A stretch of 64,000 nucleotides of DNA from a virus (taxonomy: Duplodnaviria > Heunggongvirae > Uroviricota > Caudoviricetes), in the IMG/VR virus record IMGVR_UViG_3300028832_000098, positions 81,241 through 145,240 of that record. The stretch is one strand, 5' to 3'. This document shows, piece after piece, positions 239-35,735 of the stretch. The translations under genes were made by a program, and so were the position numbers. The notes beneath the pieces are model-generated. The model was not told the origin of the DNA, searched no databases, and was given only the letters and a program-made list of their open reading frames with translations. Each line of letters begins with the position of its first letter. The first letter of the stretch is position 1.

Positions 239-520
239 TTACCTATAGAACAAAGTATCCATCACTCCAAAATGTATGTTCTTTCCAAAATTCTTTTTAA
301 GAAAGTTGTAATAATTCAAACACAGATAATGGACACTATCTTGTTTGAGTTTTCTTACAATCGAAGTGACTGAAATATTTGGTGGATATGATATAAGAAG
401 ATGTATATTGCCTTTGTCTATCTCCATAACATCAATATCGAAATCAGAAGTTTGTAAAATTTTTGAAACAATTGTTTTACGACTATATCCAGTCTGTATT
501 GTAATAATTGTTTTCTGTAT
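239..520 (-). pseudogene. tnpA: Decayed IS200/IS605 TnpA (Y1 HuH transposase) remnant, divergent from tnpB
   Basis: Minus-frame translation ...TGYSRKTIVSKILQTSDFDIDVMEIDKGNIHLLISYPPNISVTSIVRKLKQDS... aligns to the TnpA core (YRRKVLV...DHIHIL..PP..SV). The first His of the HuH motif is replaced (NIH), there is an internal deletion, no in-frame ATG at the N-terminus, and the frame ends before the catalytic Tyr helix. Confidence 0.55.
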
Positions 521-649: not shown

Positions 650-1846
650 GTGAAAACGATTTATAAGACATATAAGTTTAGAATGTATCCAAATACGGAA
701 CAAGTAGAGTTGTTAGGTAAGTATTTTGGATGCACTCGCTTCGTCTATAATTATTTTCTCAACGAACGTATGGAGCAATATAAAGCTACACAAAAGTCTG
801 ATAATTACTATGACCAAGCTAAGAAACTAACTCTATTAAAGAAGCATGAAGAATTTGTCTGGTTAAATGAGATTAACAGTCAAACCTTACAACATAGTTT
901 GAGACATCTTGAATCTGCATATCTTAACTTCTTTAGAGGAAATGCGAAGTTTCCAAGATTCAAATCAAGGAAAGACAGAAACTCTTTTGTAGTGCCACAA
1001 TTTTGTTCTGTTGTTGGCAATTCTATATCATTACCAAAATTCAAGTCTAATATAAAAATAAAGAAACATCAAGAAATATCAGGGAATGTACGTTCTATGA
1101 CAGTATCTAAAGATTGCGATGGAAAATATTATGTTGCTATTCTTACAGAACAGTTATATGAACCAATACAAAAATCTAATAAATCTGTCGGAATTGATTT
1201 AGGATTAAAAGACTTTGTTATTACGTCAGATGGAAAAGTTTACAAAAATCATAGATATACAAAGAAATATGAAAGAAAATTAAGTAAAGCACAGAGGCAT
1301 CTTTCTCGTAAGCAAAAAGACAGCCGTTCTTTTGAAAACCAAAGAAGAAAAGTTGTCAAGATTCATAAGAAAATTTCAAATTCAAGAAATGATGTATTAC
1401 ACAAGGTATCAACAGAACTTGTCAGAAACTATGACATAATCTGTTGTGAGAACCTTAACGTAAAAGGAATGATTAAGAACCATAAACTTGCAAAGCATAT
1501 TGCTGATGTCAGTTGGGGAACATTCGTAAACTATCTTGAATACAAGTGTGAAAGGGAAGACAAGACTTTAGTGAAGATTAACAGATATTTTCCAAGCTCA
1601 CAGACTTGTAGTGACTGTGGATATATCAATCAATCTATCAAAGACTTGGGTGTACGAGAATGGACTTGTCCTAAATGTGGTAAACACCACAATAGGGACT
1701 TAAATGCTGCTATCAATATCCTTAGAGAAGGATTAACAACTCTATCGGCAGGGACTGTCGATTACACAGGTGGAGACGATGTAAGACTTGCTTGCAAGCA
1801 ATTGTCTGCGAAGCCTGAAGCCCACAAATCTTTAGTTTGTGAGTAG
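650..1846 (+). CDS. tnpB: TnpB / IS200-IS605 OrfB family RNA-guided nuclease (RuvC-like domain plus zinc finger)
   Basis: 398 aa. RuvC-I GIDLGLKDF, RuvC-II IICCENLN, zinc finger CSDCG...CPKCG, RuvC-III HHNRDLNAAINI. The 3' end overlaps convergently by 15 nt with 1832..2551, and its ωRNA would be expected across 1700-2000. Confidence 0.9.
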   Translation: MKTIYKTYKFRMYPNTEQVELLGKYFGCTRFVYNYFLNERMEQYKATQKSDNYYDQAKKLTLLKKHEEFVWLNEINSQTLQHSLRHLESAYLNFFRGNAKFPRFKSRKDRNSFVVPQFCSVVGNSISLPKFKSNIKIKKHQEISGNVRSMTVSKDCDGKYYVAILTEQLYEPIQKSNKSVGIDLGLKDFVITSDGKVYKNHRYTKKYERKLSKAQRHLSRKQKDSRSFENQRRKVVKIHKKISNSRNDVLHKVSTELVRNYDIICCENLNVKGMIKNHKLAKHIADVSWGTFVNYLEYKCEREDKTLVKINRYFPSSQTCSDCGYINQSIKDLGVREWTCPKCGKHHNRDLNAAINILREGLTTLSAGTVDYTGGDDVRLACKQLSAKPEAHKSLVCE

Positions 1847-2551
1847 TTCATAAATCCAATGATAGCCAGATTTATCAAGTATGAATGCTATGTTCAAAAC
1901 GGTATTCAAAGCACAGTATTCTATCTCTGACTCTTCAGGCTTGTTGCCGAATAAATGTGGAAGCATCTCATCGGTATTGACGATTTTAACTGTAGAACCG
2001 AAATAATCATCCTGTATGCTGTAGTCATTATTCGCAAATTCGTCATAATGAGTTATTTCCATAAGCTCGTCGGCATTCTCCTCTTCATCGCATCTATACG
2101 CGAATTCATAGTTACCAAGCTCTACACCATTCTTAGAACTCTCATTGATAAACTGGCTGTAAGTAAGTAGCTTTGAGCTACCCTCGGTAAAAAGCCTGTC
2201 ATATACGACTTTCACCTTTTCAAGTTCGTCGACAGTAAACTTGAAGATGATATTGACGTACATCTCATCTTTCGTAACATCAACTTGCTCTTTATAATCT
2301 TGCAGAGCAAATACTCCGAATATACTCTGAGCGGCATTATACGCGTCAGACTTGATTTGCTTCAAATCATAATATTCCCGTTGAGGGTCTTCGTGATAAG
2401 ACAAAGTAATCGTCAGGACATCTGACTTGAAGCTGTATGTTTTCTTCGTATAGTAACCAACGATATTCTCAAGGCCTATCGCATCAGATACGACCTTACT
2501 AAGCTCGTCGAGAATATCTTTCATATTTCTGTCATTTATTTTCATAATCAT
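1832..2551 (-). CDS. hypothetical protein
   Basis: 239-aa ORF with no recognisable motifs; its 3' end overlaps the tnpB stop. Confidence 0.4.
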   Translation of the reverse strand: MIMKINDRNMKDILDELSKVVSDAIGLENIVGYYTKKTYSFKSDVLTITLSYHEDPQREYYDLKQIKSDAYNAAQSIFGVFALQDYKEQVDVTKDEMYVNIIFKFTVDELEKVKVVYDRLFTEGSSKLLTYSQFINESSKNGVELGNYEFAYRCDEEENADELMEITHYDEFANNDYSIQDDYFGSTVKIVNTDEMLPHLFGNKPEESEIEYCALNTVLNIAFILDKSGYHWIYELLTN

Positions 2552-3243
2552 AGTTGTTGTTTTAAAATGTAATTAACGGCATCTTTAATAACTTTGCTGG
2601 ATTCATCATACAAATAATCAGTATCATAAAATCCGCCAGTAACAGCATGTACTTCGATATTATAGGCATACTCAGTTTTGGAGAATATGAGAACCCCATT
2701 ATATCTTCCGTTATATGTAATAAGAATCGAGTCTGTCTTATATATCTTAGCTTCATACTTGGCTCTGCCTATATTAAACATTTCAACAAATCTACTGACG
2801 ATATTCAGATATTCAGGCAGCAAATCCTTGATTTCAGGCATTGACTTCATACTTGATTTTTTCTTCTTGTCTTCATCTATGACATTCTGAAGCCATTCAA
2901 GCAATATCTTATACATCTCGTCAGACATCAGTCTTAGTTTGCTTTTATCGGCTACATTTATAATTGTCGTTACGTACTGCAAGCCGTTTTCAAGACGTAT
3001 CATCGCATATATCGGATGCCAATCTTGTTCAGGGTATAACATTACAGACACAACTTTATCGACAGGCTCCAAAAGATTTTTGTCCTTCAGCATTGTCTGC
3101 AGTTCCTCGACCTCTTTTGTTATGACAGAACCATAGGAATCACTTCCGTATTCATCCATCATATTTTCAAGGCTGCTGTCATATTCTTTACGTATGTCTT
3201 TTCCTTCTTTAAGGAACTGATTATATGTCTTTAATTTTTTCAT
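2548..3243 (-). CDS. hypothetical protein with CTS-like N-terminus (MKKLKTYNQFLKEG)
   Basis: 231-aa ORF. The N-terminal peptide matches the family motif M-x-K-L-K-T-[FY]-x-x-F-[IL]-x-E. A conserved leader ACATAAAATTTTTAATGAT lies directly upstream of the ATG. Confidence 0.5.
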   Translation of the reverse strand: MKKLKTYNQFLKEGKDIRKEYDSSLENMMDEYGSDSYGSVITKEVEELQTMLKDKNLLEPVDKVVSVMLYPEQDWHPIYAMIRLENGLQYVTTIINVADKSKLRLMSDEMYKILLEWLQNVIDEDKKKKSSMKSMPEIKDLLPEYLNIVSRFVEMFNIGRAKYEAKIYKTDSILITYNGRYNGVLIFSKTEYAYNIEVHAVTGGFYDTDYLYDESSKVIKDAVNYILKQQL

Positions 3244-3261
3244 ATCATTAAAAATTTTATG

Positions 3262-5169
3262 TTATGCTTCTCCGTATGTTTTCACCTCAACACCAAGAGC
3301 GGCTGCTTTCTTCATTTTTCCGGATGTCGAAGACATATCGTCTGTAAACAGGATTTTACATTGCTTCCAGTCTGATGTCTCTATATATTCAGGATGCGCC
3401 GCAAGGAAAGCTGCCTTGGTAACATATCCGAATTCTTTCGGACTTCCTGTCATAATCACAGGTATCGCCGTCGACGCAGCGGCTGCTTCCGGAGCCATAT
3501 TAACTTTGAACAAATTCGCATACCCAATAATAGTCTGGTATTCCTGAGAATTCTCATCAAGAAGCCATCTCTTGACTTCACCAGGCACGCCTATGAGATG
3601 ATTTGACTTGTCGCCCTTGATAAACTTGGCACAGACATCGGCAGCTACCTTGCCGCACAGACGGAACTGCAGGGCAAGTATGATTTCATTAAGCGTCAGA
3701 GTCTTACGCCTTTCAGTAAGGGCATTTACGATATTCATTATCGATGTCCCTGTTCCGAAACGTTCCTTCATAAAAGCGATTGATTCATCTTTCATAAAGT
3801 CAAGGACATTCTCGATTTTTACATCCTCGCTTGTAAAGAACTCAGGCATAATCTTACGTATCGTCGCCTCTTTGAAATTTCTGATGTTTATCGCCTCAGC
3901 GCCTGCTATTACCTTTATGACAACTTTTTCTTCAGCAGACAAGTCAATCATAAGATGAGGTCCTTTAACGGTCACATTCTCGGTAGGAGCCATATTGTCG
4001 CCTCCGTCTCTTACGATTTCATACACAAAAGGAATTATATCGCCGGCAAGCGAAATCTTAATGATAGAACCAACTCCGACGTTATTGTCCTTAACATATC
4101 CGTAGTTATGCAATGACGCCTTGTTGATGTTCTTTCCGTCCATCTTTATCGTCTTGAACACAGCCTTCGGGAAAAGTTCTCCTGTCTTTCCAACATTCCA
4201 TTCTATCTCCGTGATTTCTGTCTCGAGGATACTTGGTTTGTATTTGATTGCGACGCAGTCGCTCGGACGCTGAACATCTTCCGTCTTGCGGTATTTCACT
4301 TCTGGTTTCAACACGAAGCCGTCAAGAGGGAATTTGTAATCCTTACGAACTTTCTCCATTTCTTCGTAAATCCTCGCGAATTCCATAGGACTGAGTTCTG
4401 ATTTCTTAAAGGTAAGCACATTGTATGCGCATATGTCATAGCCAGGAACCGTATTATAGTCAACCCATTGATATGAGCCTGACGGAGATACAAGCCTGAA
4501 GTCATACACAACTATTGACAAATCTTTCCTTATATCAAGCTGTTCCTGTTTTCCGTCCCATTTCTGACCGAACATGCCAGCAACGAATGCCCTTGTATTC
4601 GCGAATTTATCCTGATAGCCTGCGTTAAAGTCATTAAAGCTTATAAGAGCTTCTCCCCTTACTACGAGCTTCTTGCCTTTCTGCAGGAATTCCTTGTAAG
4701 GTATTTCGTCTACATAAGGACTCAGCCAGTGGCTTACATCCGTACCGTATTCACCATCGCCTCTTGTCGATATTCCTTCAACATTTCCTTCGTCATCGAA
4801 CACCACCTCAAAAGAACATCCGTCGAATTTCGGAGTTACCTCAATGATTCCATCGTCCGGAACATTTTGGAAATACTTGTTAAGGGTATCGATATATGAG
4901 TCAAAATGGGTTTGGCCGTCTGAACCTTCTTTTATCTGTATTTTCGAAAGGCTTCCCATTTTTATCGGATGCTTTACGGTATAATTATCAGAATGATGTG
5001 TACCTATATAGCCCTGATTTTCAAGACCAAGCTTTCTTTCGAGCTCATCAAATTCAGCGTCGCCCATAATGGGGTTGCCATTATAGTATGCGTCTTTCGC
5101 CTTATTGTACAGTTCAAGGTCCTCTTCCCTTGATTCATAAAATTGTTTGAATGTCTTTAAGTGTTCCAT
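3262..5169 (-). CDS. ligA: NAD-dependent DNA ligase (LigA-like) with CTS-like N-terminus (MEHLKTFKQFYES)
   Basis: Adenylation motif KFDGCS (KxDG), TRGDGEYGTDVS (compare LigA TRGDGTTGEDIT), and an N-terminal LigA-like AYYNGNPIMGDAEFDELERKL. The ORF track begins at an upstream TTG; the ATG at 5169 is the likelier start. Confidence 0.8.
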   Translation of the reverse strand: MEHLKTFKQFYESREEDLELYNKAKDAYYNGNPIMGDAEFDELERKLGLENQGYIGTHHSDNYTVKHPIKMGSLSKIQIKEGSDGQTHFDSYIDTLNKYFQNVPDDGIIEVTPKFDGCSFEVVFDDEGNVEGISTRGDGEYGTDVSHWLSPYVDEIPYKEFLQKGKKLVVRGEALISFNDFNAGYQDKFANTRAFVAGMFGQKWDGKQEQLDIRKDLSIVVYDFRLVSPSGSYQWVDYNTVPGYDICAYNVLTFKKSELSPMEFARIYEEMEKVRKDYKFPLDGFVLKPEVKYRKTEDVQRPSDCVAIKYKPSILETEITEIEWNVGKTGELFPKAVFKTIKMDGKNINKASLHNYGYVKDNNVGVGSIIKISLAGDIIPFVYEIVRDGGDNMAPTENVTVKGPHLMIDLSAEEKVVIKVIAGAEAINIRNFKEATIRKIMPEFFTSEDVKIENVLDFMKDESIAFMKERFGTGTSIMNIVNALTERRKTLTLNEIILALQFRLCGKVAADVCAKFIKGDKSNHLIGVPGEVKRWLLDENSQEYQTIIGYANLFKVNMAPEAAAASTAIPVIMTGSPKEFGYVTKAAFLAAHPEYIETSDWKQCKILFTDDMSSTSGKMKKAAALGVEVKTYGEA

Positions 5170-5214
5170 AATCTTTCTCAAGTTTTTAGATAAAAATGTT
5201 TTAATTCTGTTCTT

Positions 5215-5688
5215 TTATTTTTTACAATGATTCTTTACAAAGGTCGCAAATTTTTCTAAGTCATAGTAACGTTTCTGATATATTCCGACAGCACCTACCT
5301 CGTATGTTACATAGACATCTTTGTCTGGAGTAGCGATTCCTGTCAGTTTCTCAGATTGTCTTAACGATGTCTTACTTACGACAGCATAAGTGCTTCGATA
5401 TGAAGTCCATAGACCGAGATATTTATCTATAAGCTCAATCTGTTCGTCGCTGTAACCTTCTTTTCTCAGTCTGACTTTATCCCAAGAAGATACGTGGTAG
5501 TCTTCGAAACCCCAAGCTATTTGAGGTGCTCTAAATTCGCGCTTGTATAATTCTTCACCATTCGGTACGAATATATATCCTCGTTCGCGTTTTCTACTAT
5601 CTTTTTTGACAACATAATCATTGATTTCGTTATCCCAGCCAGAAATAGCTTCATTGATAAAACTTTTGAAAGTCTTTAATTTTTCCAT
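5215..5688 (-). CDS. hypothetical protein with CTS-like N-terminus (MEKLKTFKSFINEA)
   Basis: Start trimmed to the ATG at 5688. The first 14 codons are nearly identical at the DNA level to those of 6892..7740. Confidence 0.5.
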   Translation of the reverse strand: MEKLKTFKSFINEAISGWDNEINDYVVKKDSRKRERGYIFVPNGEELYKREFRAPQIAWGFEDYHVSSWDKVRLRKEGYSDEQIELIDKYLGLWTSYRSTYAVVSKTSLRQSEKLTGIATPDKDVYVTYEVGAVGIYQKRYYDLEKFATFVKNHCKK

Positions 5689-5689
5689 A

Positions 5690-6160
5690 TTATATTTCAG
5701 TTTCGGCACCAAGCCAGTTTGACATCGTTATACGGTTCTTAACGGCAAGAGCTGCTATCCTCGTATGATACTTTTTGTTAATAAATTCGGTTATCGCTGT
5801 AAGTAAGGTATTGTCATTCATCATTTTTTTCATGACCTCTCTTTCGGCATTCGTCCTCGAACCAGACAGTTCAGAACTATAAAAGCTTTCATCTTTAAGC
5901 CTTGCCCTTGCGTCTATGACTATAACGCCATCAGATTTTCTTGAACCTATCCAAATAATTAAACGAGCCTTATCTGTGTCTACTGTATATTTTGAAAGGT
6001 CAAACAAGTATTCAGTATTATTCAGCTTACGCATCTTCTCATCATATTCCTCAACAGATACCTTCCATTTAGGTTCCCATTCAATGATGAGGTTCGTCAA
6101 GTCGTCAAGACTTACGGACTCTTTTAAGAACTTGCTATATGTCAGCAATCCCTTACTCAT
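5690..6160 (-). CDS. hypothetical protein with CTS-like N-terminus (MSKGLLTYSKFLKES)
   Basis: 156-aa ORF tightly packed in the same operon. Confidence 0.45.
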   Translation of the reverse strand: MSKGLLTYSKFLKESVSLDDLTNLIIEWEPKWKVSVEEYDEKMRKLNNTEYLFDLSKYTVDTDKARLIIWIGSRKSDGVIVIDARARLKDESFYSSELSGSRTNAEREVMKKMMNDNTLLTAITEFINKKYHTRIAALAVKNRITMSNWLGAETEI

Positions 6161-6165
6161 GTCGC

Positions 6166-6741
6166 CTACAGTTTTACATAGATATGATACTTGCCTACAG
6201 TATGGTTGTCATACTGCTGGTATATCGCAAGCATATCATCATTATACTCTATCTTCATGAAGCCTTCGATTGCTTCTCCTTCTATGGTCTCGGAGTAATC
6301 GTAAATGACATGTTTCGCGATACCATTCATAAGGTCGACTGTCGCCATGCCGCCCCAATGCGTATTTTTAGATGAATATAGTTTCGTGTTTATCATCGAA
6401 CCTTGCCCAATTCTCTTCAGGAAAGTATAATCACGAACGTTTTTCTTCTCAACCCATTTATCTATAGCCTGAATTATTTGTATATCAGTTTCAATCTTGG
6501 ATATTTCTTTTAATCTAAGACCTTTATACTTGTCGGATGTCTTAGATACAGCATATAAATCTTCAAGTGTTCTTTCTTCCCCTTGAAATGGCTTTTCAAA
6601 GAAAGACTCATAAATGGAATCGCTTATTACACTTGTATCAGCTTTCAAGAATCTTCCAGCATCATCTGATTCAGCAATTACCTGATTATAAGTCTTTAAG
6701 ACAAATCCTTTATTTTCAGAAATTTCTTTAATTTTTTCCAT
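6166..6741 (-). CDS. hypothetical protein with CTS-like motif at residues 14-25 (LKTYNQVIAES)
   Basis: 191-aa ORF, preceded by the TTGTTTTTTATATAAAAGCTTAAAAGATT leader. Confidence 0.45.
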   Translation of the reverse strand: MEKIKEISENKGFVLKTYNQVIAESDDAGRFLKADTSVISDSIYESFFEKPFQGEERTLEDLYAVSKTSDKYKGLRLKEISKIETDIQIIQAIDKWVEKKNVRDYTFLKRIGQGSMINTKLYSSKNTHWGGMATVDLMNGIAKHVIYDYSETIEGEAIEGFMKIEYNDDMLAIYQQYDNHTVGKYHIYVKL

Positions 6742-6891
6742 AATCTTTTAAGCTTTTATATAAAAAACAATATCTACAATCTATTTATGGTTTTCCCGGT
6801 TATTTATATTCAGATTCTATGCGAAGCTACTCGATAAAAAGAAAGTGTCAAAGAATTTCACTCTGACGTTCTCTTTTCATATTGTCTTACT

Positions 6892-7740
6892 TTATTGTTT
6901 TATATCAGGTTTATATTCCTGCTTGATTGGACAATTAACGAACATATCCCTGCATATTACTTCTTTCGAAACATTCCAATTTGAAATATCTTGGTTGAAA
7001 GATTCAGTATAATGAAACATAGCTTCCATATCTTCTACATTTGAAACATCCCAGTTTCCAATTGGCTGATTAAAACATTTTGCAAAACTAAACATGCTTC
7101 TCATATTTTTTACATTTGAGACATCCCAGTTTTCAATTGGTTGATTGAACTTCTCTGCTCTATGGAACATAAAAGGCATATAATAGGCATTTGAAATATT
7201 CCAGTTTCCAATTGGCTGATTGAAGCTTTTTGCAGCACTAAACATACTTCTCATAATTTTGACATTTGAGACATCCCAGTTTTCAATAGATTGGTTGAAC
7301 TTTTCTGCAGCACTAAACATACTTCCCATATCCTCTACATTTGATACATTCCAGTTTCCAATAGGTTGATTGAAACTTTTTGCAGACATAAACATCATTC
7401 CCATATCTTTTACATTTGAAACCTCCCAGTTTTCAATAGATTGATTGAACTTTTCTGCACTACTGAACATTCTTCGCATGTTCGTCACATTACTTGTATC
7501 CCATTGTGATATATCACCATTAAAACTTCTGGCAAATGCAAATAAATGGCTCATATCAGTAATCCTTGATGTGTCAATATCATTAAAGTCACCTTCAAAA
7601 CCTCTCTCCTCTATAAGAGCTTCCATAAGCAATTTCAATTCATCTCTATCTTCAGGATAGTACTTTCCATTATTTTTTCTGAAAGCATTCAAATCAATAC
7701 TTTCTTTGATGAAGCTTTTGAATGTCTTTAATTTTTCCAT
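6892..7740 (-). CDS. DUF285-type (Mycoplasma/Bacteroidota surface 26-residue repeat) protein with CTS-like N-terminus (MEKLKTFKSFIKES)
   Basis: About 8 tandem repeats of FNQPIxNW[DN]VSNVxxMxxMFxxAxxFNQ; preceded by the TTGTTTTTTATATAAAAGC motif. Confidence 0.6.
   Translation of the reverse strand: MEKLKTFKSFIKESIDLNAFRKNNGKYYPEDRDELKLLMEALIEERGFEGDFNDIDTSRITDMSHLFAFARSFNGDISQWDTSNVTNMRRMFSSAEKFNQSIENWEVSNVKDMGMMFMSAKSFNQPIGNWNVSNVEDMGSMFSAAEKFNQSIENWDVSNVKIMRSMFSAAKSFNQPIGNWNISNAYYMPFMFHRAEKFNQPIENWDVSNVKNMRSMFSFAKCFNQPIGNWDVSNVEDMEAMFHYTESFNQDISNWNVSKEVICRDMFVNCPIKQEYKPDIKQ
6930..7578. repeat. Coding tandem repeats (~78 bp units) encoding DUF285 repeats
   Basis: Visible periodic repetition of ...cccagttttcaat[ag]g[ac]ttg[ag]ttgaa... 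units. Confidence 0.7.
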
Positions 7741-7794: not shown

Positions 7795-8820
7795 TTACGC
7801 CTGTTTATAATATTCCTTGTACCATTCAACAAATTTATGCAGGCCTTCCCGTAAATCAGTTTTAGGGAAATATTGATAGTCATGGCCAAGCTTTGAGGTA
7901 TCAGAATACGTGACAGGCACGTCACCAGGCTGCATCTCTACAAATTCAAGATGTTCATCCAGCTTGTAGTTTTCCAGCAGCATTCCGAAATCCCTAAGTT
8001 CCTGATATAATATTGATATGAAATCAATAAGGTTTTCTGGGCGTCCTCTTCCGATATTGTATATGTTGTAAGGTATTCCATTCGATTTATCAGCAGATAT
8101 ATGTCCGCGATAGACAATACTCATAATGCCGTCCGTTATGTCATCGATATAGGTGAAATCCCTCACACAGTTTCCGTTATTAAACACTTTTATGCTCTTG
8201 CCTTTGAGAAGATTGTCGGTAAAACTGAAGTAAGCCATATCAGGCCTGCCTGCAGGTCCGTAGACGGTAAAGAACCTTAACCCTGTCGTAGGTATTCCGT
8301 ATAGCTTGCTGTATGTATGAGCGAACAACTCGTTACTCTTTTTGGTAGCAGCATATAGGCTGACAGGTCCGTCAACCTTGTCAGACTCAGAAAACGGAGT
8401 CTTTGTATTTCCGCCGTAAACCGAACTTGAAGAAGCATATATCAGATGCGTTACAGGATATTTACGACAGGCTTCGAGTATGTTATAGAATCCGATGACA
8501 TTGCTGTTCATATAGGCGTCTGGATTCGTTATACTGTACCTTACCCCAGCTTGAGCGGCAAGATTGATTACGATGTCCGGCTTGTATTCCTCGAATAGTG
8601 AAAAGACATAATCCCTGTTAGATATATCAGACTTTATAAACCGAAAGTTTTCGCTATGTAATGATTTTATCTGGTTCAGCCTGTATTCTTTAAGGCTTAC
8701 GTCATAATAATCATTCATGTTGTCTATACCGATAACATAGACATTTCCTATGTCAAGCAGTCTTTTGACAACATTAGAGCCTATAAATCCGGCAGCGCCT
8801 GTTACAAATACAACGTCCAT
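7795..8820 (-). CDS. NAD-dependent nucleotide-sugar epimerase/dehydratase (SDR family, UDP-sugar 4-epimerase-like)
   Basis: N-terminal Rossmann TGAAGFIGS, catalytic YAATKK (YxxxK), length 341 aa. Confidence 0.8.
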   Translation of the reverse strand: MDVVFVTGAAGFIGSNVVKRLLDIGNVYVIGIDNMNDYYDVSLKEYRLNQIKSLHSENFRFIKSDISNRDYVFSLFEEYKPDIVINLAAQAGVRYSITNPDAYMNSNVIGFYNILEACRKYPVTHLIYASSSSVYGGNTKTPFSESDKVDGPVSLYAATKKSNELFAHTYSKLYGIPTTGLRFFTVYGPAGRPDMAYFSFTDNLLKGKSIKVFNNGNCVRDFTYIDDITDGIMSIVYRGHISADKSNGIPYNIYNIGRGRPENLIDFISILYQELRDFGMLLENYKLDEHLEFVEMQPGDVPVTYSDTSKLGHDYQYFPKTDLREGLHKFVEWYKEYYKQA

Positions 8821-10568
8821 TATTTCTTATGCTGGTTATACGTAAAATACTTCGATTGTCGGACTATCGTCGCTGGAAGGTTGTTTATCTCGAAATCAAG
8901 CTTCCATAAGCAATATCTCAGCGACAGCTGGTCCCTGTAAGAACCTTTAAGAATCTCGTTCGCCCACATTTCATTTACTTTATTGACAGCTTTGTCATTC
9001 TTACGAACTAAAAGATTATTCTCATTCAAGCCGTAATTTTGAGGAAATCCTTCATCGCGGTATCTCTTCATTTGAGCGCTTACGACGTCTTTACTATCAA
9101 TACTGAAACTTGTTACAACATCGCCTTCATCATATAGACAAGTCCTCTTGAAATGAAGCGGTATACTGAATATGTTGTTATCACACACATCCGATATGAA
9201 CTTGACTGGGTCGGTATTGATGGTTATGTTGCCGTCGATATACATAGACCACTCGTGTTCAGGCAAATACTTCTGAGGCATTACCTTTATTATCCTTGAC
9301 TGTTTCTTAGCATCAACCGTCTTAAGCTCGTCAGGTATTTTATGTATTTCCCAGACATAGCTTTTCAGATTGTCATCAGAAAAACAGATATACCTGCATG
9401 CCGGTGAAATAACCTGCGGATTCTTCAGGTCGTCATACCCGTTTATTATGACGGTGTAACAGATATTTTTGCTCCTGTTATTATCCTTATAAAGATTCCT
9501 GAACTTTTCTATGTATTTGCCGTACTTGTTGTAGGTATACATTTTATACATATTGGTAATACCGGCGTCAGACCTGTCACCGAAGTAAGTCCTCGCATTC
9601 CCCGTCAAATTAGAAGAAAGTGTCTCGCTTAAGAAATTCATTCTTATTCCTTTTATACCAAGCAATTTATTTTTAGTCAGCTTGATATTATTCTTTGCAA
9701 AATATTTCTTGCACATCTCACCATTCCAAAAATAGAACGTGCCTGTATAATGTATTCCGTCATTTTTGATGCCGTCAGCCTTCAAGCTGTTCCTTATCAT
9801 ATCGACATCTTTCTTAAACGGTCCGCTCTTTGCGCATGAACTTATCGCTCCATAGGAATAATTATCTTCAAGGGTCTTAAGAGCAGAATCCCATCCGTCC
9901 ATCAGACAGCCTTGGTACATCAAGTAACACCAGTATTTTATGTCGAGTATCTTAGAGGCGTCATTATACTTAGCTCCTTTGAAATGAGAATAGAAAATTA
10001 TGCTGTCAGCCTTGCTAACGAAGTCCAGCATTTTTACCCAGGTTTCAAATTCACCTGTATTCTTGCTATTCTTTCTGAATTCTATTTTAACATCGGCTTT
10101 CCCGTTCTTGGTAAGCTCTTTGATTGATTTTGTTATAAAGTCTCTTGCCTCCTTGGTATCGGTATCAAGCGCGACATTGAAATGTATCTCGTCAAACTTA
10201 TTATCGAAGTCCGCAAGCCACAACATTGAAAAATGGAATTTCTCTAAATCGCTTAATACAAGGTTTGACCTGTCTTTAAACCACCAATGAATGAGATGGA
10301 TTTTCTTCTTGGCGTAAGGATATTTCTTCTTAGGCTTTTTATATTTCCAGATTTCAAGATTTTCAAAAGCCTCTATAATTTTTGGTGTAATCTCATCATT
10401 ATTCCAATCAAGTTTTGGATTACGTATGTTTATCGGCAGTAATGATTTTCTGATAGGCATCGCCTTACCAGAATTACCTTTTTGTGATACAACCGCAAAC
10501 TTTTTATTTACTGGCATCACCGGTTTCTGCGGACTTTTCTTAATAAGTATCTTTGCCCTGTATTTCAT
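8820..10568 (-). CDS. Putative glycosyltransferase (DUF616/TOD1-like C-terminal domain) with a basic N-terminal module shared with 11277..12245
   Basis: C-terminal region TVIINGYDDL...CFSDD...KVMPQKYLPEHEW...SMYIDGN resembles the DUF616 glycosyltransferase-like family. The N-terminal 48 aa MKYRAKILIKKSPQKPVMPVNKKFAVVSQKGNSGKAMPIRKSLLPINI is paralogous to the ATP-grasp protein N-terminus. Confidence 0.5.
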   Translation of the reverse strand: MKYRAKILIKKSPQKPVMPVNKKFAVVSQKGNSGKAMPIRKSLLPINIRNPKLDWNNDEITPKIIEAFENLEIWKYKKPKKKYPYAKKKIHLIHWWFKDRSNLVLSDLEKFHFSMLWLADFDNKFDEIHFNVALDTDTKEARDFITKSIKELTKNGKADVKIEFRKNSKNTGEFETWVKMLDFVSKADSIIFYSHFKGAKYNDASKILDIKYWCYLMYQGCLMDGWDSALKTLEDNYSYGAISSCAKSGPFKKDVDMIRNSLKADGIKNDGIHYTGTFYFWNGEMCKKYFAKNNIKLTKNKLLGIKGIRMNFLSETLSSNLTGNARTYFGDRSDAGITNMYKMYTYNKYGKYIEKFRNLYKDNNRSKNICYTVIINGYDDLKNPQVISPACRYICFSDDNLKSYVWEIHKIPDELKTVDAKKQSRIIKVMPQKYLPEHEWSMYIDGNITINTDPVKFISDVCDNNIFSIPLHFKRTCLYDEGDVVTSFSIDSKDVVSAQMKRYRDEGFPQNYGLNENNLLVRKNDKAVNKVNEMWANEILKGSYRDQLSLRYCLWKLDFEINNLPATIVRQSKYFTYNQHKK

Positions 10569-10619
10569 TTAAAATCTTGGTATTTAATGAATTAACAATT
10601 ACTGTGTATATCTTTATAT

Positions 10620-11261
10620 TTATATTTGCCAAAGTCTCCTTGAAAGATTTACAGCAATATCAACCCTATTATCTTTCCTATAAAAATTACATAAAGGATT
10701 TACAGAATTATATATTTTTATCTGGTCTCTTATACTTTGATTAAACTTAAATTTAAGTTTTGCTTTTTTATAATTGAGATAAAACCTTATATAGGTGTCA
10801 TCTACGCCGGTAGCAATTATATCATTTGGCAATTTTTCCCAAAATGAAGAATCAAATATACTTGACCTATAAATCGCTCTATTGCCTACCAAGCCTGAAT
10901 TGGGACAAAATACATCACAACCTTTAACTTCAGAGACCATCATTTTTATATAGTCGCTGCCGTATAGCAAATCATCGTCTATTGTAAGCAAAAGGTATTC
11001 TTGCCCATAATATTTTTTAAGAACAGGTATAAACTTTTTGAAAGATTTCGTGTTTTCCTTCACCCAGTTTATTTTAAGTAGTCCGTCAGATACTAATTTT
11101 ATCACATCACCTGGTAATTCATTTTCTTTATTTGGAAACTCATCCGTTGATAAGTTCAATTCTACACTGTCAGCTTTTAATGATTGATTCAAAATCGAAT
11201 TGCAGACAGCTGGTACATTTTCTATTCTGTCTTTCCAAGATGTAAATGATACTATAATCAT
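10620..11261 (-). CDS. Putative glycosyltransferase (GT-A-like, DxD)
   Basis: IIVSFTSWKDRIENV...LLTIDDDLLY motif; 213 aa. Weak evidence. Confidence 0.35.
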   Translation of the reverse strand: MIIVSFTSWKDRIENVPAVCNSILNQSLKADSVELNLSTDEFPNKENELPGDVIKLVSDGLLKINWVKENTKSFKKFIPVLKKYYGQEYLLLTIDDDLLYGSDYIKMMVSEVKGCDVFCPNSGLVGNRAIYRSSIFDSSFWEKLPNDIIATGVDDTYIRFYLNYKKAKLKFKFNQSIRDQIKIYNSVNPLCNFYRKDNRVDIAVNLSRRLWQI

Positions 11262-11276
11262 AGCTTATATGACTTA

Positions 11277-12245
11277 TTAAAGTTTCAACATATCTCCTAC
11301 CATTATTTCGTCTTCCTTATTCTTATATCTAAACATTCCAGAACCTGGAGCGAAAGTAAGCTCGCCTAAATAAATTTTACCCTTAATCTCATAAAGGTCG
11401 ACACGTACAAATTTGAAGTCACTTGAAAGAATCTTTGCTATCTCTTTCATCTTCTCGAAACTTTTCGGCTTTGCAAAATCCTTCAAGTCATACTGTATCC
11501 CGTAAAAATTACATACGTTGTCATCCATATCGAAATACAATATGTCTCCATGCCCGTGTCCTGCATTTATCGTGTACAGTTTAGGCTCGCCGTTAAAGCA
11601 CCAAAATTTGTAATCATATAACGATTCCTTCTGCTTCGAGTCAAACATATACTTTTCGGCGTAAGCTTTCCTGACTATATCGTGATAATGCCATTCATAA
11701 TGGTTCTTGACTGCAAAATCTGAATCAAGCCATGACGATAATTTATTTACGGCTTCTGTATAGTCAAGTTTGGATTCATCCTTTACTATAATGTTCATTC
11801 CGCTGCCATGGTTGCATTTCAGAACGAAGCTCTTCGGAAGGCCTTCTAAATCAATGTTCTTACCGTCAAATACCTTCAGAATCGGTATACATATATCCTT
11901 TCCCAATTTTTCTTTACAGTATTCGTGCAAAAGAATCTTATCGGCACATCTCGTTTTCAGTTCCGACAAATCGTTAAGCTTAAGCCATTGTAGCTTATCT
12001 TGTATCGTCTTGGGATTCTTTAGGTCATATTTGCCTTTACACCATTGGATAAATTCCTGTCTTTCATCAAGTACAGGAACTGCTTCAGGTTTAGGGTCAA
12101 CTATGTTTGTCGGCAATGCTGACTTCCTAATAGGCATTGTCTTGTCAGTATTACCTTTCCGTGCCACAACTGCAAACTTATTGTTTGCTGGTATTACCTG
12201 TTTCCTCTGTTTATCCTTAATGAGAATCTTTGACCTGTATTTCAT
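11277..12245 (-). CDS. TupA-like ATP-grasp family protein (amide-bond ligase fold) with shared basic N-terminal module
   Basis: KCNHGSGMNII, YDYKFWCFNGEPKLY, FVRVDLYEIKGKIYLGELTFAPGSG, typical of ATPgrasp_TupA. N-terminus MKYRSKILIKDKQRKQVIPANNKFAVVARKGNTDKTMPIRKSALPTNI. Confidence 0.6.
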   Translation of the reverse strand: MKYRSKILIKDKQRKQVIPANNKFAVVARKGNTDKTMPIRKSALPTNIVDPKPEAVPVLDERQEFIQWCKGKYDLKNPKTIQDKLQWLKLNDLSELKTRCADKILLHEYCKEKLGKDICIPILKVFDGKNIDLEGLPKSFVLKCNHGSGMNIIVKDESKLDYTEAVNKLSSWLDSDFAVKNHYEWHYHDIVRKAYAEKYMFDSKQKESLYDYKFWCFNGEPKLYTINAGHGHGDILYFDMDDNVCNFYGIQYDLKDFAKPKSFEKMKEIAKILSSDFKFVRVDLYEIKGKIYLGELTFAPGSGMFRYKNKEDEIMVGDMLKL

Positions 12246-12259
12246 TTTATCTAATCAAT

Positions 12260-12865
12260 TTAGAAAACGTAATCTTTTTCGTATTCCGAAGGTATTTCAT
12301 ATTCTTCGTTCTCAAGAACGAATTTTATTTTCTTTACTGCAAATGTGCAGTCTATTTTCTGCATATCTATTGCTTTACTTGAATAGTCAAGCTGCGGCGG
12401 CTGGCCTACCTGTGTAAACAGAACTTCAGAAAATTTCAGCCTGTACAATTCAAGGTTCCTGTTATCAAGGAACGTAAGATAAAAAGCCTCAGGCAGATAT
12501 TTCTCGCCGAAATGTGAATAGTAATAGTAACAGATGTCAGCCATTATGAAAAATACGAGGTATCCTTCATCAAGTTTCATAGATACTGTCATCGTTCCTT
12601 CGGAAAGTCCGTGGATACTTACATTGCCTCTGTATTGCCTTTGTACCCTCGAGCCTTGGTCTCCCTGCGTTACCGGTGTCTGCTGTATGCCGAGCGGAAT
12701 CTGCACGCCTTGAATTGCCAGATTAAGAAAATCCCTGACATTATCTACGGGATAGTCAGGGAGTCTCTTAATCAGTGGAGCATATCTCTTAGCTATACTT
12801 TCCGGCACAAACGACGCTGGGAACAAAAATTTGAACCTGTTATTTGAACCTGTTAAGAATGGCAT
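12260..12865 (-). CDS. hypothetical protein
   Basis: 201-aa ORF in the operon; no recognisable motif. Confidence 0.4.
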   Translation of the reverse strand: MPFLTGSNNRFKFLFPASFVPESIAKRYAPLIKRLPDYPVDNVRDFLNLAIQGVQIPLGIQQTPVTQGDQGSRVQRQYRGNVSIHGLSEGTMTVSMKLDEGYLVFFIMADICYYYYSHFGEKYLPEAFYLTFLDNRNLELYRLKFSEVLFTQVGQPPQLDYSSKAIDMQKIDCTFAVKKIKFVLENEEYEIPSEYEKDYVF

Positions 12866-12867
12866 AA

Positions 12868-14370
12868 TTAGATATTTTCTTTCTTTTCACGAATTTTATT
12901 TGTATAGTCTGCAATCAATGCACGAACTTCGTCAAGCTTCTGCTTCTGACCTTTATCCTTAGGATTGAGACCGTCTGTAACATTCATAAGGTTTTCAAGT
13001 ATTTCAAGGTCATGGTCATAAATCATTTTCTTCATTTCGTTCGTTACAGACTTGCTGTTGTAGTCTATAAGTCTTTCACGCATCATAGTCTTCACGTCAA
13101 GCGACGTCCATTTAGACATATCGCTTACCGCCTCGTTGAGGTCTTTGTAGTCTTTCAACATCGACTTGCCCTCACTGACATAGAACACGCAATACTTGTT
13201 CCTGTTGTATTTGCCTTCAAGGAATATAGCTACATTCGAATTGACGTCGTTTGCGAACATCTCAGTCTTGCATACGTCAGATATGTCTTTTATGAACATC
13301 CTGTTTTCTATGAACTCAGACATACGCCTTACGTCAAACTTGACATCAGAAAGAAGGGATGCACGCCTTACAGCCTCTGAAAGAACATATCCGGACAAAT
13401 CTGAATATTCAGCCTCATTGATTGAAAACATGCCGTTGACACCGACTGTTATGACATTGTTATAATATGAAAGCTTTGTACCTTCATTCTTAAACATGCC
13501 TATGCCTTCAAGCACGGTACCGAACCTTATCGTTCTGTTGCTTGATGGCTCGTGGTATTTCAACTGTGTCTCGTGTATGAATTCGTTCGCTTTCTCGAGT
13601 ACATACAACTTATCCTTGATACCAAAAAGAATATCCCCGTTTTCCTTCACCATAACAGGGAGAACATATCTGTCCATTGGTTTCCTGTTACATTCAACAG
13701 GCGCCGGATTGATTTTTTCAAGATATTTCTTTACTATCGGCAACTGTCCGTACCCTTCAAGAATCTTGTCAAGAGGTTTCCTTTCATCGTCATTACGTCC
13801 GATATTGTCTTCTATCTCAGAGCAAAGTCGTTCAACAAATTCGGAATAAAGAGGACTGTTTGCGTATTTACGGCAACCTGCCATAACCCTCATAGCTTCA
13901 ACGGCATAAATGTCGGAAGTTATCAGCTTACGTACCTCCTGAATATAGTCGTTAACGACCTCAACAGACTGACTGTACTCCATAAGCTTCGCTGCGAATT
14001 GTGGAGCAGCTTCGTAAAGTAAGAGACTGTTGTTCTCGATTTTTGACATCGGATACAAACCTTCCAAGAAGCCTAATGTTTCAAGAGCTTTCGCAGCAAA
14101 TAGATTGGAATCCTTTTGCAACGTGTCTCTCAGTTTCTCGTTAAAGCTTCCGAACTGCTGAATCCTTTGGTTGTAATACTTGCGAAAATGGTCGCTCTTG
14201 CCCCATACTTTTTCAAGGACATCATTGATGACTGCCTTGTCATACTGCATGTTTTTCAAAGCGATTTCCGCTACATTCTTTTCAATGCCGCCTGCGAACA
14301 TCTGCATAGCCAAATCGACTATGTTGCCTTGCTCTTTTACCTGCGTTTGTTTTCCAGAATTATTTTCCAT
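12868..14370 (-). CDS. hypothetical protein (500 aa)
   Basis: Long ORF with good coding density; not recognised. Confidence 0.45.
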   Translation of the reverse strand: MENNSGKQTQVKEQGNIVDLAMQMFAGGIEKNVAEIALKNMQYDKAVINDVLEKVWGKSDHFRKYYNQRIQQFGSFNEKLRDTLQKDSNLFAAKALETLGFLEGLYPMSKIENNSLLLYEAAPQFAAKLMEYSQSVEVVNDYIQEVRKLITSDIYAVEAMRVMAGCRKYANSPLYSEFVERLCSEIEDNIGRNDDERKPLDKILEGYGQLPIVKKYLEKINPAPVECNRKPMDRYVLPVMVKENGDILFGIKDKLYVLEKANEFIHETQLKYHEPSSNRTIRFGTVLEGIGMFKNEGTKLSYYNNVITVGVNGMFSINEAEYSDLSGYVLSEAVRRASLLSDVKFDVRRMSEFIENRMFIKDISDVCKTEMFANDVNSNVAIFLEGKYNRNKYCVFYVSEGKSMLKDYKDLNEAVSDMSKWTSLDVKTMMRERLIDYNSKSVTNEMKKMIYDHDLEILENLMNVTDGLNPKDKGQKQKLDEVRALIADYTNKIREKKENI

Positions 14371-16466: not shown

Positions 16467-18164
16467 TTACACAAGTTCGATTGATGGGCTAAATGCCATA
16501 TCGAAACGCAAGTATTGCAAATCTGGATAGTGACCAGCAGCAAGAAGTGCGAAACGAGATTTCATTGCACCAGCGTATGCGAATGTCGCAGTTGCTGTCG
16601 TAGTTACTTTCTTAGCCATAATGTATGGTAAGAAAATCAAACCTGGGTCATTAGGTTTAGTGATACGACCAACCAAAACGCCTGTATAGTTTACAGGAAG
16701 GTTCGGGTCTTGGTACAATGTAATGTTGCTTACCTGTCCAATTGGATTAGGAGCATCAGCTACAGATTGAACGTTGTTAGGCAAAGTGATTTGAGTAAGA
16801 CCTGCTACAGATTGTACTGCAGTTACGAACTGAGTAGAACCGATAGCGAAGAATTTACCACCTGACAAACGAGAATCGTGAGAGATGATGTTAGCAGCAT
16901 ACAACAATTTACGCATTACACGTGCTTGAAGTGTCAACGAAGTTTCACCACCGTTGTCAACAACTACTTGTTTGTAATCTTTGTAAGCAGCAGGAATGTC
17001 TTCGTCAGCATCTGCAACTGATTTGAAGTAAGTGTTCAATACTTCGCCTCTGTCTTCAAGACGGTCAGCATGTTTGCCAGCCAATTCCCACATCTTAGTT
17101 AAGATGTACTTGTTAGTAGATTGAGACAATTCGTTAAGAGCATCACCTTCGATTTGAGCGATGATGTCTTGACCGTCAGCCTGTGCATCTTCGATTTGTT
17201 CCCAAGTAGCTGAGAAACCAACTTGGTAAGTTCTTACTTTGTAATCGAAAGAAGTACGTTTAGCACCCAAGAAGTTAACTGTAGTAGCTTCTCCTTCTTC
17301 ACGTTCGAATGGTTCTACACCGAAATTGTTGTCGTAAGGATTCTTTGAACCAGTTTTTTCTACTGAGTTTTCATAGAAGTCACGACCTGTGAATGCAGTG
17401 ATGTGATTTTCTTTCGTATTTACTTGACCGAATACGAAGATACCTTCGAATGCTTCTGCAAGAGTTTGAGCGCCATTGAAACGACGTGCATTGAATTCAC
17501 CCGGTTTAGCGTCTTTTCTTTCAACTAAGAAGATTGGTTTACCAGAGATGAAGCCAAGTTCAACGAATGTCAATTTGAAATCACCTTGTTCAATAACAGG
17601 AGCTTCAGAACCTTCAGCTTCGATAACTTTCTTCAATAATTCTGCACCTTCTTCAGAAGCTTCAACAACTTCAACAAGCAATGGGTCAGCAACTGCATTT
17701 GTAAATTTGTAGCTTACATTACCATCTTTGTCGTAAGTACGCAAGTCACCATTGATACGGCCACCTTCGTAAACAGTATCGTAGAAACGATATTGACCTT
17801 GAGGAGCTGATACCGGTACAACTGCCAACAAGTCAAGAGCGATTGTTTGAGCAGCTGCTTGCATTGCGATAGCTACACTTGAAGCGATTGCATCTGCTGA
17901 ACCGTTACGTACACCAGAGAAACCATTTTCACCACCATTAGGGAATTGAATTGCGCCAGCGCCTTGCATAGTCATTGACGGATTCAATGTTGGTCCCCAG
18001 AAAGCAGATTCCAAAATTGGTTTCATTTTATCGTCGTTATCTTGGATAGCGCAAACTTTAGACATCCAAGCAACTTTTACAGGGTCTTTTATTCCGGTTG
18101 ATTCTTCAATCACCTTGCCCCAATCCTGAAGGGCTTTTACACTATTGATTTCCATTTCTATCAA
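16467..18164 (-). CDS. Major capsid protein, T4 gp23-like (HK97 fold)
   Basis: ...AIASSVAIAMQAAAQTIALDLLAVVPVSAPQGQYRFYDTVY... aligns with T4 gp23 ...NLIAFDICGVQPMNSPTGQVFALRAVY.... Length 565 aa; followed by a terminator; next to the protease-scaffold gene. Confidence 0.8.
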   Translation of the reverse strand: MIEMEINSVKALQDWGKVIEESTGIKDPVKVAWMSKVCAIQDNDDKMKPILESAFWGPTLNPSMTMQGAGAIQFPNGGENGFSGVRNGSADAIASSVAIAMQAAAQTIALDLLAVVPVSAPQGQYRFYDTVYEGGRINGDLRTYDKDGNVSYKFTNAVADPLLVEVVEASEEGAELLKKVIEAEGSEAPVIEQGDFKLTFVELGFISGKPIFLVERKDAKPGEFNARRFNGAQTLAEAFEGIFVFGQVNTKENHITAFTGRDFYENSVEKTGSKNPYDNNFGVEPFEREEGEATTVNFLGAKRTSFDYKVRTYQVGFSATWEQIEDAQADGQDIIAQIEGDALNELSQSTNKYILTKMWELAGKHADRLEDRGEVLNTYFKSVADADEDIPAAYKDYKQVVVDNGGETSLTLQARVMRKLLYAANIISHDSRLSGGKFFAIGSTQFVTAVQSVAGLTQITLPNNVQSVADAPNPIGQVSNITLYQDPNLPVNYTGVLVGRITKPNDPGLIFLPYIMAKKVTTTATATFAYAGAMKSRFALLAAGHYPDLQYLRFDMAFSPSIELV

Positions 18165-18272
18165 ATTTTTAAGTTACACTTTTGAAACAATTCACAACAC
18201 CGGAATAAGTTCCTTTCTTTCTTGCTCCGAAGCGTTAGCTTTTATATTTATATTTTTCTAAATTTCCTCATT

Positions 18273-23255: not shown

Positions 23256-23263
23256 TATTTATA
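23256..23263 (-). promoter_or_regulatory. T4-type late promoter -10 element TATAAATA (minus strand) upstream of the sheath gene
   Basis: The exact octamer sits in the conserved context AAAATTATAAATAGAAT, shared with 24768..24775. Confidence 0.45.
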
Positions 23264-35727: not shown

Positions 35728-35735
35728 TATTTATA
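35728..35735 (-). promoter_or_regulatory. T4-type late promoter TATAAATA
   Basis: TTTTTTTATAAATAGAAAAAGACAGTTCAAATG on the minus strand. Confidence 0.45.

Follow-up and report, generated by a model that had tools for sequence, protein, structure and literature searches.

Within a 64,000-nucleotide (nt) stretch of a Caudoviricetes genome (positions 81,241 to 145,240 of the IMG/VR record IMGVR_UViG_3300028832_000098; hereafter the window), 12 of about 62 genes begin with a common short peptide, L-K-T-[FY]-x-x-F-[IL]-x-E-[SAG] or a version shorter by one residue, ahead of proteins that are unrelated to one another. A capsid targeting sequence (CTS) of the type known from phage T4 is the best-supported explanation of this peptide, and we consider it probable. 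The proposed mechanism is that of T4, and the novelty lies in a near-unchanged tag in a very distant lineage of jumbo phages, in the number of genes that carry it, and in enzymes among the likely cargo, namely an NAD-dependent DNA ligase and a minimal protein with an ADP-ribosyltransferase (ART) fold. An earlier reading of the window, made from the sequence only, had proposed such capsid targeting, and the proposal gains support from the conservation of the residues mapped in T4, a predicted cleavage tetrapeptide shared with the prohead protease, a late-promoter-like motif, the viral distribution of the tag, tags that stop at the domain boundary of the ligase, and a tagged Alt-family protein in a relative.

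A common N-terminal peptide on unrelated proteins

A simple gene model of the window gave 68 open reading frames (ORFs), of which about 62 are plausible genes, and as the ORFs are long and continuous under table 11, there is no sign of an alternative genetic code or of recoding. The tag lies within the first 25 residues of 12 predicted products. Six of these are encoded consecutively on the minus strand (a slash marks the predicted cut): an ORFan of 231 residues (2548-3243; peptide MKKLKTYNQFLKEG, tag and cut MKKLKTYNQFLKE/G), the 635-residue NAD-dependent DNA ligase (3262-5169; MEHLKTFKQFYES, short-form tag MEHLKTFKQFYE/S), ORFans of 157 (5215-5688; MEKLKTFKSFINEA, MEKLKTFKSFINE/A), 156 (5690-6160; MSKGLLTYSKFLKES, MSKGLLTYSKFLKE/S) and 191 residues (6166-6741; LKTYNQVIAE/S at residues 15-25), the last being the first gene of a unit that runs down to 1832, and a DUF285-repeat protein of 282 residues (6892-7740; MEKLKTFKSFIKES, MEKLKTFKSFIKE/S). 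The plus-strand members are ORFans of 253 (44635-45396; MEKLKTYKQFIKES, MEKLKTYKQFIKE/S) and 151 residues (45498-45953; short form, MKALLTFKEFLES, MKALLTFKEFLE/S), a weak member of 260 residues (45957-46739; MSELKIYSKWLEG, MSELKIYSKWLE/G), a degenerate member of 123 residues (46746-47117; MGNLKTFSEYRRDY..QLQE/A), the ART-fold protein of 137 residues (58108-58521; MEPLKTYSDFIAEG, MEPLKTYSDFIAE/G) and a charged protein of 419 residues encoded upstream of a gene for a gp13-like adaptor (60721-61980; short form, MDREHLMTFNEFRES, MDREHLMTFNEFRE/S). Two further genes carry the tag internally: a 239-residue protein (1832-2551, minus strand) has SSKLLTYSQFINE/S at residues 125-138, with LLTYSQFINES from residue 128, and a 639-residue ORFan (42711-44630, plus strand) has a degenerate copy (HLMTFNEYRMFVEGSE; tag and cut EGHLMTFNEYRMFVE/GSE) that resembles the N-terminus of the 60721 protein. 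Ten tagged ORFans, that of 5690-6160 among them, had no match in Pfam, PHROGs or NCBIfam.

The strict pattern L[KL]T[FY]xx[FV][ILVY]xE occurred eight times in the six-frame translation of the window, each time in the frame of a real gene. A position-specific scoring matrix built from these eight copies gave eight matches of at least 16 bits, compared to none in 30 shuffles, the eight being its own training copies and matching by construction. With a hidden Markov model (HMM) of the tag, the 45957 protein (16 bits) and the 1832-2551 protein (23 bits) were likewise part of the training set, and the 46746 protein, outside it, scored 6.7 bits. At the predicted cut, eight copies have [IL]xE[SAG], seven of them N-terminal and one internal (1832-2551), four further N-terminal members have the short form [FW]xE[SG], which reads F-x-E/S in the ligase and the 45498 and 60721 proteins, and 46746 retains the distal LQE/A only.

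All-against-all BLASTP of the tagged proteins found no mutual similarity past the tag at E ≤ 0.01. The exception to unrelatedness is the body of the 46746 protein, which is a paralogue of residues 229-328 of the protease ORF described below (BLASTP, 32% identity, E = 1.4e-14). Mean nucleotide identity across the 33-nt core of the tag was 60%, not above the amino-acid identity, and conserved columns are encoded by synonymous codons (ACA/ACT, TTC/TTT, GAA/GAG, TTA/TTG/CTA), which together indicate selection on the peptide. The tag DNA of 5215 and 6892 is near-identical, and about 45 nt upstream are common to 6166 and 6892, such that a few copies are recent recombinants. The sequence-only reading had named the six minus-strand genes of 2548-7740, plus-strand copies at 44635, 45498, 46746, 58108 and 60721 and an internal copy in 42711-44630; all are present, with the 6166 tag starting at ORF residue 15 and the 46746 copy degenerate, and the members it had missed are the weak 45957-46739 and the internal copy of 1832-2551. 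Its statements that conservation is at the protein level and that the downstream proteins are unrelated also stand, apart from the few copies near-identical in DNA and the paralogy of 46746.

Other local similarities were also seen. Residues 14-74 of the 45957-46739 product are 61% identical to residues 147-207 of a plus-strand ORF that leaves the window at its end (63112-64000+). The adjacent and unrelated genes 59216-59566 and 59713-60684 (both plus strand) encode similar peptides at their very C-termini (..LLSFSEFSKN and ..ILESFDEFSKKFSVNHK), which resemble the targeting half of the tag ([TS]FxxF) without a cleavage site; the N-terminus of the former is MEATTFQDFKD.

Correspondence with the capsid targeting sequence of T4

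The CTS of T4 is MKTYQEFIAE, and T4 gp21 cleaves after the Glu of I/L-x-E, both as stated in the earlier reading. Amber-suppressor mutagenesis of T4 internal protein III (IPIII) located targeting mainly at Y4 and F7 and processing at I8 and E10 (PMC9026906). In the window motif, T-[FY]-x-x-F-[IL]-x-E, the columns of all four are invariant or nearly so: the column of CTS position 4 is [FY] in 12 of 12 N-terminal members, and that of position 7 is F with single cases of Y, W or V. The window copy nearest to the T4 CTS is that of the 58108 protein, which has seven of the nine residues of KTYxxFIAE in common with T4. In a scan of the complete T4 genome, the core motif was found at the ORF starts of ipII, ipIII and gene 61.1 only, with T4 IPI having the first half of the motif (MKTFKEF). 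When the tag HMM, for which window tags alone had been used, was searched against the 68 window proteins and 16 T4 proteins, mostly head components, its best matches outside the training set were T4 IPII, IPIII and IPI. As these residues are conserved despite a major capsid protein (MCP) that is only about 25-30% identical to those of the T4 family, the contact between tag and scaffold is probably very old.

T4 gene 61.1 (NC_000866, 18966-19130) encodes an uncharacterised protein of 54 residues that starts MKTFKEFIKED, and is the sole T4 ORF besides the internal proteins with an N-terminal CTS core. We also considered the tag as a mimic of the N-terminus of the MCP propeptide (LQDWGKVIE, compared to LNKWKPLLE in T4 gp23); the spacing is alike by eye, but the tag HMM detected neither MCP, which leaves this as a weak lead.

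Head genes and the shared predicted cleavage site

The window encodes a T4-type virion module. On the minus strand lie genes for a gp20-type portal protein (36234-37937; Pfam Portal_T4, E = 9e-61), a gp23-family MCP with an N-terminal propeptide (16467-18164; Pfam Gp23) and a prohead protease of the gp21 family, fused at its C-terminus to a long scaffold-like region (18273-20228; Pfam Peptidase_S77/S80, PHROG 207). Genes for a sheath, a tail tube, a gp25-like baseplate protein and a gp13-like head-tail adaptor were also recognised by Pfam or PHROG. The closest deposited capsid proteins are 24-31% identical to the window MCP and come from uncultured huge phages, Lak Prevotella megaphages and Flavobacteriia jumbo phages; a near-identical sister contig of 238,631 bp exists. 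Two candidate cleavage sites in the MCP (VIEE/S and PILE/S) lie upstream of a segment, GGENGFS, that aligns to GGDHGYN of T4 gp23, just past the E65 cleavage site where the mature protein starts. The first of them is part of WGxVIEESTGI, which is kept in relatives with only about 32% capsid identity.

The sequence-only reading had called a gp21-like protease at 18273-20228, and this assignment was borne out by PHROG (head maturation protease, 3e-39), by Pfam (Peptidase_S77, 1e-11) and by alignment of H71 and S127 with the catalytic H85 and S140 of T4 gp21. The N-terminus of the protease has YIVE/S where T4 gp21 has LIE-9. The ORF of 651 residues has three parts, the protease domain, the domain paralogous to 46746 (residues 229-328), which connects a tagged protein with the prohead core, and a region of repeated sites: nine [FY][IL]xE sites occur in the ORF, eight of them in the C-terminal 450 residues, and six YLSE/YISE sites are spaced 21-28 residues apart at about residues 345-480, with two more such sites beyond. 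Six repeats of about 24 residues can be discerned in the ORF, with YT.YLSE in each.

Across all window proteins, [FYW][IL]xE occurred 49 times, compared to 22 ± 4.5 in shuffles. Followed by S, A or G it occurred at 16 sites, of which 13 are in the protease-scaffold ORF (five) or in tags (eight). Most tagged proteins have a single [FY][IL]xE site, at the tag boundary, and several have further sites. The second half of the tag is therefore the tetrapeptide repeated in the protease polyprotein, as expected if the two are substrates of the same enzyme.

One further minus-strand gene shows similarity to the MCP gene. The product of 24779-25843, a protein of 340-354 residues with a glycine-rich, transmembrane-like C-terminal end, shares 69% identity over 29 residues with positions 63-91 of the MCP (P.GG.NGFSGVRNGS.DAI), a region that aligns with the mature N-terminus of T4 gp23.

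A late-promoter-like motif

The late-promoter consensus of T4 is [TC]ATAAATA. This motif was overrepresented in the window, with 18 occurrences of TATAAATA compared to 7.5 expected and six of CCATAAATA compared to 1.0 expected. ATAAATA, mostly as [TC]ATAAATA, lies no more than about 70 nt upstream of 23 genes (e.g., at 18245-18252, 23256-23263, 35728-35735 and 47109-47116), and for the genes of the portal, protease, sheath, tube and fibre, [TC]ATAAATA lies some 25-70 nt ahead of the start. Most units of tagged genes are likewise headed by it: that from 6166 down to 1832, which includes the ligase, 42711 with 44635, 45498-46746, 56627 with 58108, and 60721. The copy ahead of the first of these units is CCATAAATA at 6782-6790 (minus strand), some 40 nt before the 6166-6741 gene, and this 9-mer is also found in front of 45498 (22 nt upstream), 60721, 42711, 59216 and 12868-14370. 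The DUF285 gene (6892-7740) is the exception, having only a near match (CTATAAATT), and a terminator-like hairpin (6867-6847) lies 3' of it. A small gene for a gp55-like, sigma-like protein is present at 29054-29410 (minus strand; PHROG 351), and this gene and the motif together suggest gp55-type late transcription in a distant lineage.

Distribution in viral and cellular genomes

We searched viral contigs and cellular genomes with the back-translated pattern M-x-K-[LF]-K-T-[FY]-x-x-F-[ILF]-x-E. Viral contigs gave 49 matches. Real ORFs began at 40 of these, and their products fall into at least eight unrelated protein families. Nine IMG/VR matches reading MRKLKTF followed by a stop, taken at first as candidates for stop-codon recoding, were instead out-of-frame matches within one conserved gene. 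Ten loci have a portal-protease-MCP block homologous to that of the window (37%, 49% and 33% identity), in which the MCP gene is directly followed by a lysine-rich tagged gene; at one locus eight consecutive tagged genes adjoin the portal gene, and at another there are four. An IMG/VR search with the protease as single query found no relative, and no match to the marine lysine-rich tagged protein turned up when the phage collection was searched by tblastn.

Bacterial and archaeal genomes, 596 Gb in total, gave seven pattern matches, two of them real ORFs. Both of these (L058 and L059) are in metagenome-assembled genomes of Lachnospiraceae and encode Flp-pilin-like proteins of 58 residues that start M[DN]KLKTFRQFL[TA]EEDGMGTVE; the match is probably to an unrelated leader peptide.

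Gain and loss of the tag

Comparison of homologues showed that the tag is modular. Among the 120 ligase matches listed, the seven closest homologues (54-100% identity) have an N-terminal tag ending in [FILN]xE[SAD], with extensions such as MDTMPSFKEFINES, MMNYKEFISE, ...RVDFIKEA and ...ADFLAES, and in six of the seven the extension stops exactly at a conserved helix (xEDLxLYxxAKEAYY). Ligase homologues at 44% identity or less, Lak-type and others, start at this helix without a tag, as does the Lak-C1 ligase (40% identical). A homologue of the 58108 protein (P0002, 47% identical) has no tag and an N-terminus of merely MKQRRVLES, and the homologue of the tagged marine protein in Tenacibaculum phage pT24 starts at the mature part, also without one. 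Two near-identical strains are distinguished only by the tag on the 6166 gene (MEKIKEISENKGFVLKTYNQVIAES versus MEKLKSYKQLIAES), with identity resuming at the predicted cleavage site: the sister-strain homologue has the N-terminus MEKLKSYKQLIAE/S and the same mature sequence from DDAGRF on.

Related contigs offered further candidates for tags. The sister contig encodes MTYKQFMEN just past the end of the window. In relative L066, the ligase and the unrelated next gene (10001-11959 and 12030-12377) have another, longer N-terminal tag in common (MIQNFNDYNKNKITFKQV...), and each gene is preceded by ATAAATA at -29.

Tagged proteins with recognisable domains

Three tagged proteins have a recognisable fold or family: the NAD-dependent DNA ligase, the ART-fold protein and the DUF285 repeat protein. 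The first and last had been called by the sequence-only reading and were confirmed by Pfam. The ligase matched PF01653 (DNA_ligase_aden, 64.9 bits) and PF03120 (OB, 66.6 bits), both above cut-off, retains the KFDG lysine motif (KxDG) and the NMN-binding YY helix (DAYYNG..GDAEFDEL), and has more than 1,100 homologues at E ≤ 1e-40; its tag lies directly ahead of the conserved helix EDLELYNKAKDAYYNG. The 6892-7740 protein matched DUF285 (PF03382) with 322 bits over three stretches.

The family of the 58108 protein comprises at least 699 members, some of which match the Pfam families Tpt1/KptA and Exotoxin A catalytic, and the H-A-T of the NAD-binding His motif is invariant in 48 family members. 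An AlphaFold2 model from the alignment of 48 sequences had a predicted local distance difference test (pLDDT) score of 89, with the tag modelled as a short helix (residues 7-12) on a linker of lower confidence; a single-sequence AlphaFold model (pLDDT 41) was unusable. In Foldseek searches of the PDB the best matches all had ART folds: Tpt1/KptA led (E = 4e-5), with cholera toxin A1, DarT and pertussis S1 behind it, and all matches at E ≤ 0.001 were to Tpt1/KptA. We considered and rejected an assignment as a Tpt1/KptA RNA 2'-phosphotransferase. The protein has about 115 residues after the tag and lacks the N-terminal RNA-binding lobe of Tpt1, and its match to PF01885 spans residues 18-53 alone and is below threshold (18.9 bits, cut-off 26), so we regard it as an ART-fold protein and not as Tpt1. 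Many members of the family have other N-terminal extensions of 10-25 residues that end in [LI]xE[SA], and others begin at LYHAT.

An ADP-ribosyltransferase is tagged in a relative as well. In relative L067, which has the tagged ligase, a protein of the Alt-family ADP-ribosyltransferases (PF03496) starts MIKTFAEYIAE; that PF03496 is the family of T4 Alt was checked by scanning Alt. The gene for an untagged homologue of the 58108 protein (L065, 10994-11308) lies in an early or metabolic part of another phage genome; two genes downstream of it, beyond an HNH gene, is a gene of the anti-Thoeris Tad4 family, and this neighbour hints at a counter-defence role for the ART-fold family.

Other features of the window

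Mobile elements are represented by two TnpB/OrfB_IS605-type genes with 23% mutual identity (650-1846, plus strand, and 39158-40417, minus strand), one of them located in the middle of the structural region, and by a Y1 transposase remnant (239-427, minus strand). Two different minus-strand enzymes, one TOD1/MUCI70-like and the other ATP-grasp TupA-like (8820-10568 and 11277-12245), have a common N-terminal module of 52 residues that is 65% identical between them (MKYR[AS]KILIK...KFAVV..KGN...MPIRKS.LP.NI) and could be another common targeting or anchoring segment.

Interpretation and alternative explanations

If the tag acts as a CTS, the tagged proteins would be produced late, alongside the head proteins, and their N-terminal helix would bind the scaffolding core around the portal via the two aromatic positions ([FY] and F), such that closure of the shell would enclose them. 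The gp21-family protease, activated in the prohead, would then cut between the Glu of [FY][IL]xE and a small residue, freeing the mature protein and allowing the tag of about 13 residues to escape. The mature proteins would stay beside the DNA inside the head and pass into the host cell along with it, and the tagged set, at least 12-14 unrelated proteins, would be a pre-made, co-injected kit for the first moments of infection. We infer core binding, cleavage, retention and ejection by analogy with T4, and the anti-defence role that the earlier reading proposed for the cargo is likewise an inference.

Several observations weigh against this interpretation. LR756500.1, the closest deposited genome, has one tagged gene in the 50 kb around its MCP gene, and phage pT24 has none in 40 kb, indicating that use of the tag is patchy. 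Most of the tagged proteins are acidic (isoelectric point 4.1-5.5), whereas the internal proteins of T4 are basic. A replication-type NAD-dependent ligase is odd as capsid cargo, and in one relative the tagged ligase gene adjoins gp32 and gp46-like genes in a replication region, so that the ligase may also, or only, serve replication. No match to gp22, gp67 or gp68 was found by Pfam or PHROG among the ORFs scanned, and the repeats are the one feature by which the C-terminal region of the protease may be taken as a scaffold. The degenerate members (46746, 45957 and the internal copy of 42711) may be non-functional.

The acidity of most tagged proteins is a property of T4 core proteins as well, and would be accommodated if the tag does target the prohead core and is cut there, on proteins that are assembly or scaffold accessories, later degraded or expelled like T4 gp67, gp68 and gp22. 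This agrees with the paralogy between 46746 and a domain of the protease-scaffold polyprotein, with the charged, coiled-coil-like character of the 60721 protein and of the marine tagged proteins encoded beside the MCP, and with the additional [FY][IL]xE sites in several tagged proteins. We nevertheless consider such a role unlikely for the set, as enzymes with intact catalytic features (both Pfam domains of the ligase, the H-A-T of the ART-fold protein) make poor scaffolds, most tagged proteins have their single site at the tag boundary, and the family tagged in a relative is that of Alt, which is known injected cargo in T4.

The two other explanations that we weighed would separate the tag from the prohead. 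Docking of the helix to another partner or place, such as a chaperone, a membrane site or a replication compartment, would suit the modelled architecture, in which a short amphipathic helix is joined by a flexible linker to the folded domain; it would also suit the tagged ligase beside replication genes, and a DUF285 surface-repeat protein fits better outside the capsid than within. We hold this to be improbable, given that it leaves unexplained the conserved Glu with the small residue at the boundary, the tetrapeptide common to the protease polyprotein, the co-occurrence with T4-type head modules and the identity with the T4 CTS. Still less probable, in our assessment, is that the peptide is functionless and travels as part of a recombination cassette of promoter, ribosome-binding site and first codons, or reflects a favourable region for translation initiation. 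The upstream DNA shared by 6166 and 6892, the near-identical tag DNA of 5215 and 6892, the A-rich first codons and the swap of the tag region between two strains are what such a cassette would leave, but conservation reaches residue 13 with synonymous codons and a nucleotide identity not above that of the amino acids, internal copies exist in two proteins, and the conserved residues are those mapped functionally in T4. The amino-acid pattern, moreover, is found again in T4 and across at least eight unrelated viral families and is nearly absent from 596 Gb of cellular genomes, AT-rich ones included.

Capsid targeting of the T4 type thus remains the reading that we prefer. A broader claim, to which we give an even chance, is that the CTS is an ancient portable label throughout the lineage of T4-type heads, which takes in coliphages as well as marine and gut jumbo phages, and that this phage delivers more than a dozen pre-made proteins, among them an ART-fold enzyme and an NAD-dependent ligase that perhaps seals or joins the incoming genome, a repertoire far larger and more enzymatic than that of T4. 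Should the tag function as it does in T4, it would mark, from sequence alone, proteins that enter the cell with phage DNA; such proteins are the first effectors that the host meets, a class rich in anti-defence and takeover functions. Here it flags as candidates about ten ORFans without database annotation in addition to the DNA ligase and the ART-fold enzyme, and if the broader claim is true, the injected repertoires of uncultured phages could be read from their genomes by searching for the tag. The T4 tag used for protein delivery in biotechnology may also work in other T4-type capsids.

Comparison with known systems

A literature search found, in the library covered, no paper describing a CTS beyond T-even phages and analogues, which does not prove that there is none. 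The CTS system of T4 is like the tag set of the window in having an N-terminal peptide of 10-19 residues on otherwise unrelated proteins, with an aromatic residue at position 4, Phe at 7, Ile or Leu at 8 and Glu at 10 ahead of Ala, Ser or Gly. Both phages have a gp21-family protease, a gp20 portal and a gp23 capsid protein, and in both the tagged genes are located outside the conserved head genes and vary among relatives. The window tag differs in an additional conserved L-K (or x-L-K) ahead of the Thr, in its one-residue-shorter form (FxE/S) and in its internal copies. There are 12-14 members in the window compared to three, possibly four, in T4, the window cargo is mostly acidic and includes large enzymes, and the protease is fused to a scaffold-like region, all in a very distant lineage with an MCP about 25-30% identical to gp23-family members. 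With T4 Alt, the 58108 protein shares the character of a putatively NAD-using ART-fold enzyme with an N-terminal propeptide that ends in a predicted protease site, and the PF03496 protein of L067 resembles Alt in family while having a tag of the internal-protein type. The 58108 protein is, however, a minimal domain of about 115 residues with a fold nearest to Tpt1/KptA and is not a PF03496 protein, and the propeptide of Alt itself, MELITE, is not a CTS of the internal-protein type.

The giant phages phiKZ, 201phi2-1 and SPN3US also have many head-internal proteins that are cut after Glu by a T4-related prohead protease (PMC5694885, PMC7411985), with propeptides inferred to target proteins into the prohead and with large capsids and cargo masses. 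Their propeptides, in contrast, are about 80-275 residues long and have no common short tag, the cleavage motif is S/A/G-x-E, and several of the proteins form families of paralogues instead of being unrelated proteins with one tag. The signals and shells of the P1 Dar antirestriction proteins and of encapsulins are unrelated to those of the window, and the cargo-loading peptides of encapsulins are C-terminal and are not removed; what these systems have in common with the tag described here is that a short terminal signal puts diverse proteins into a protein shell.

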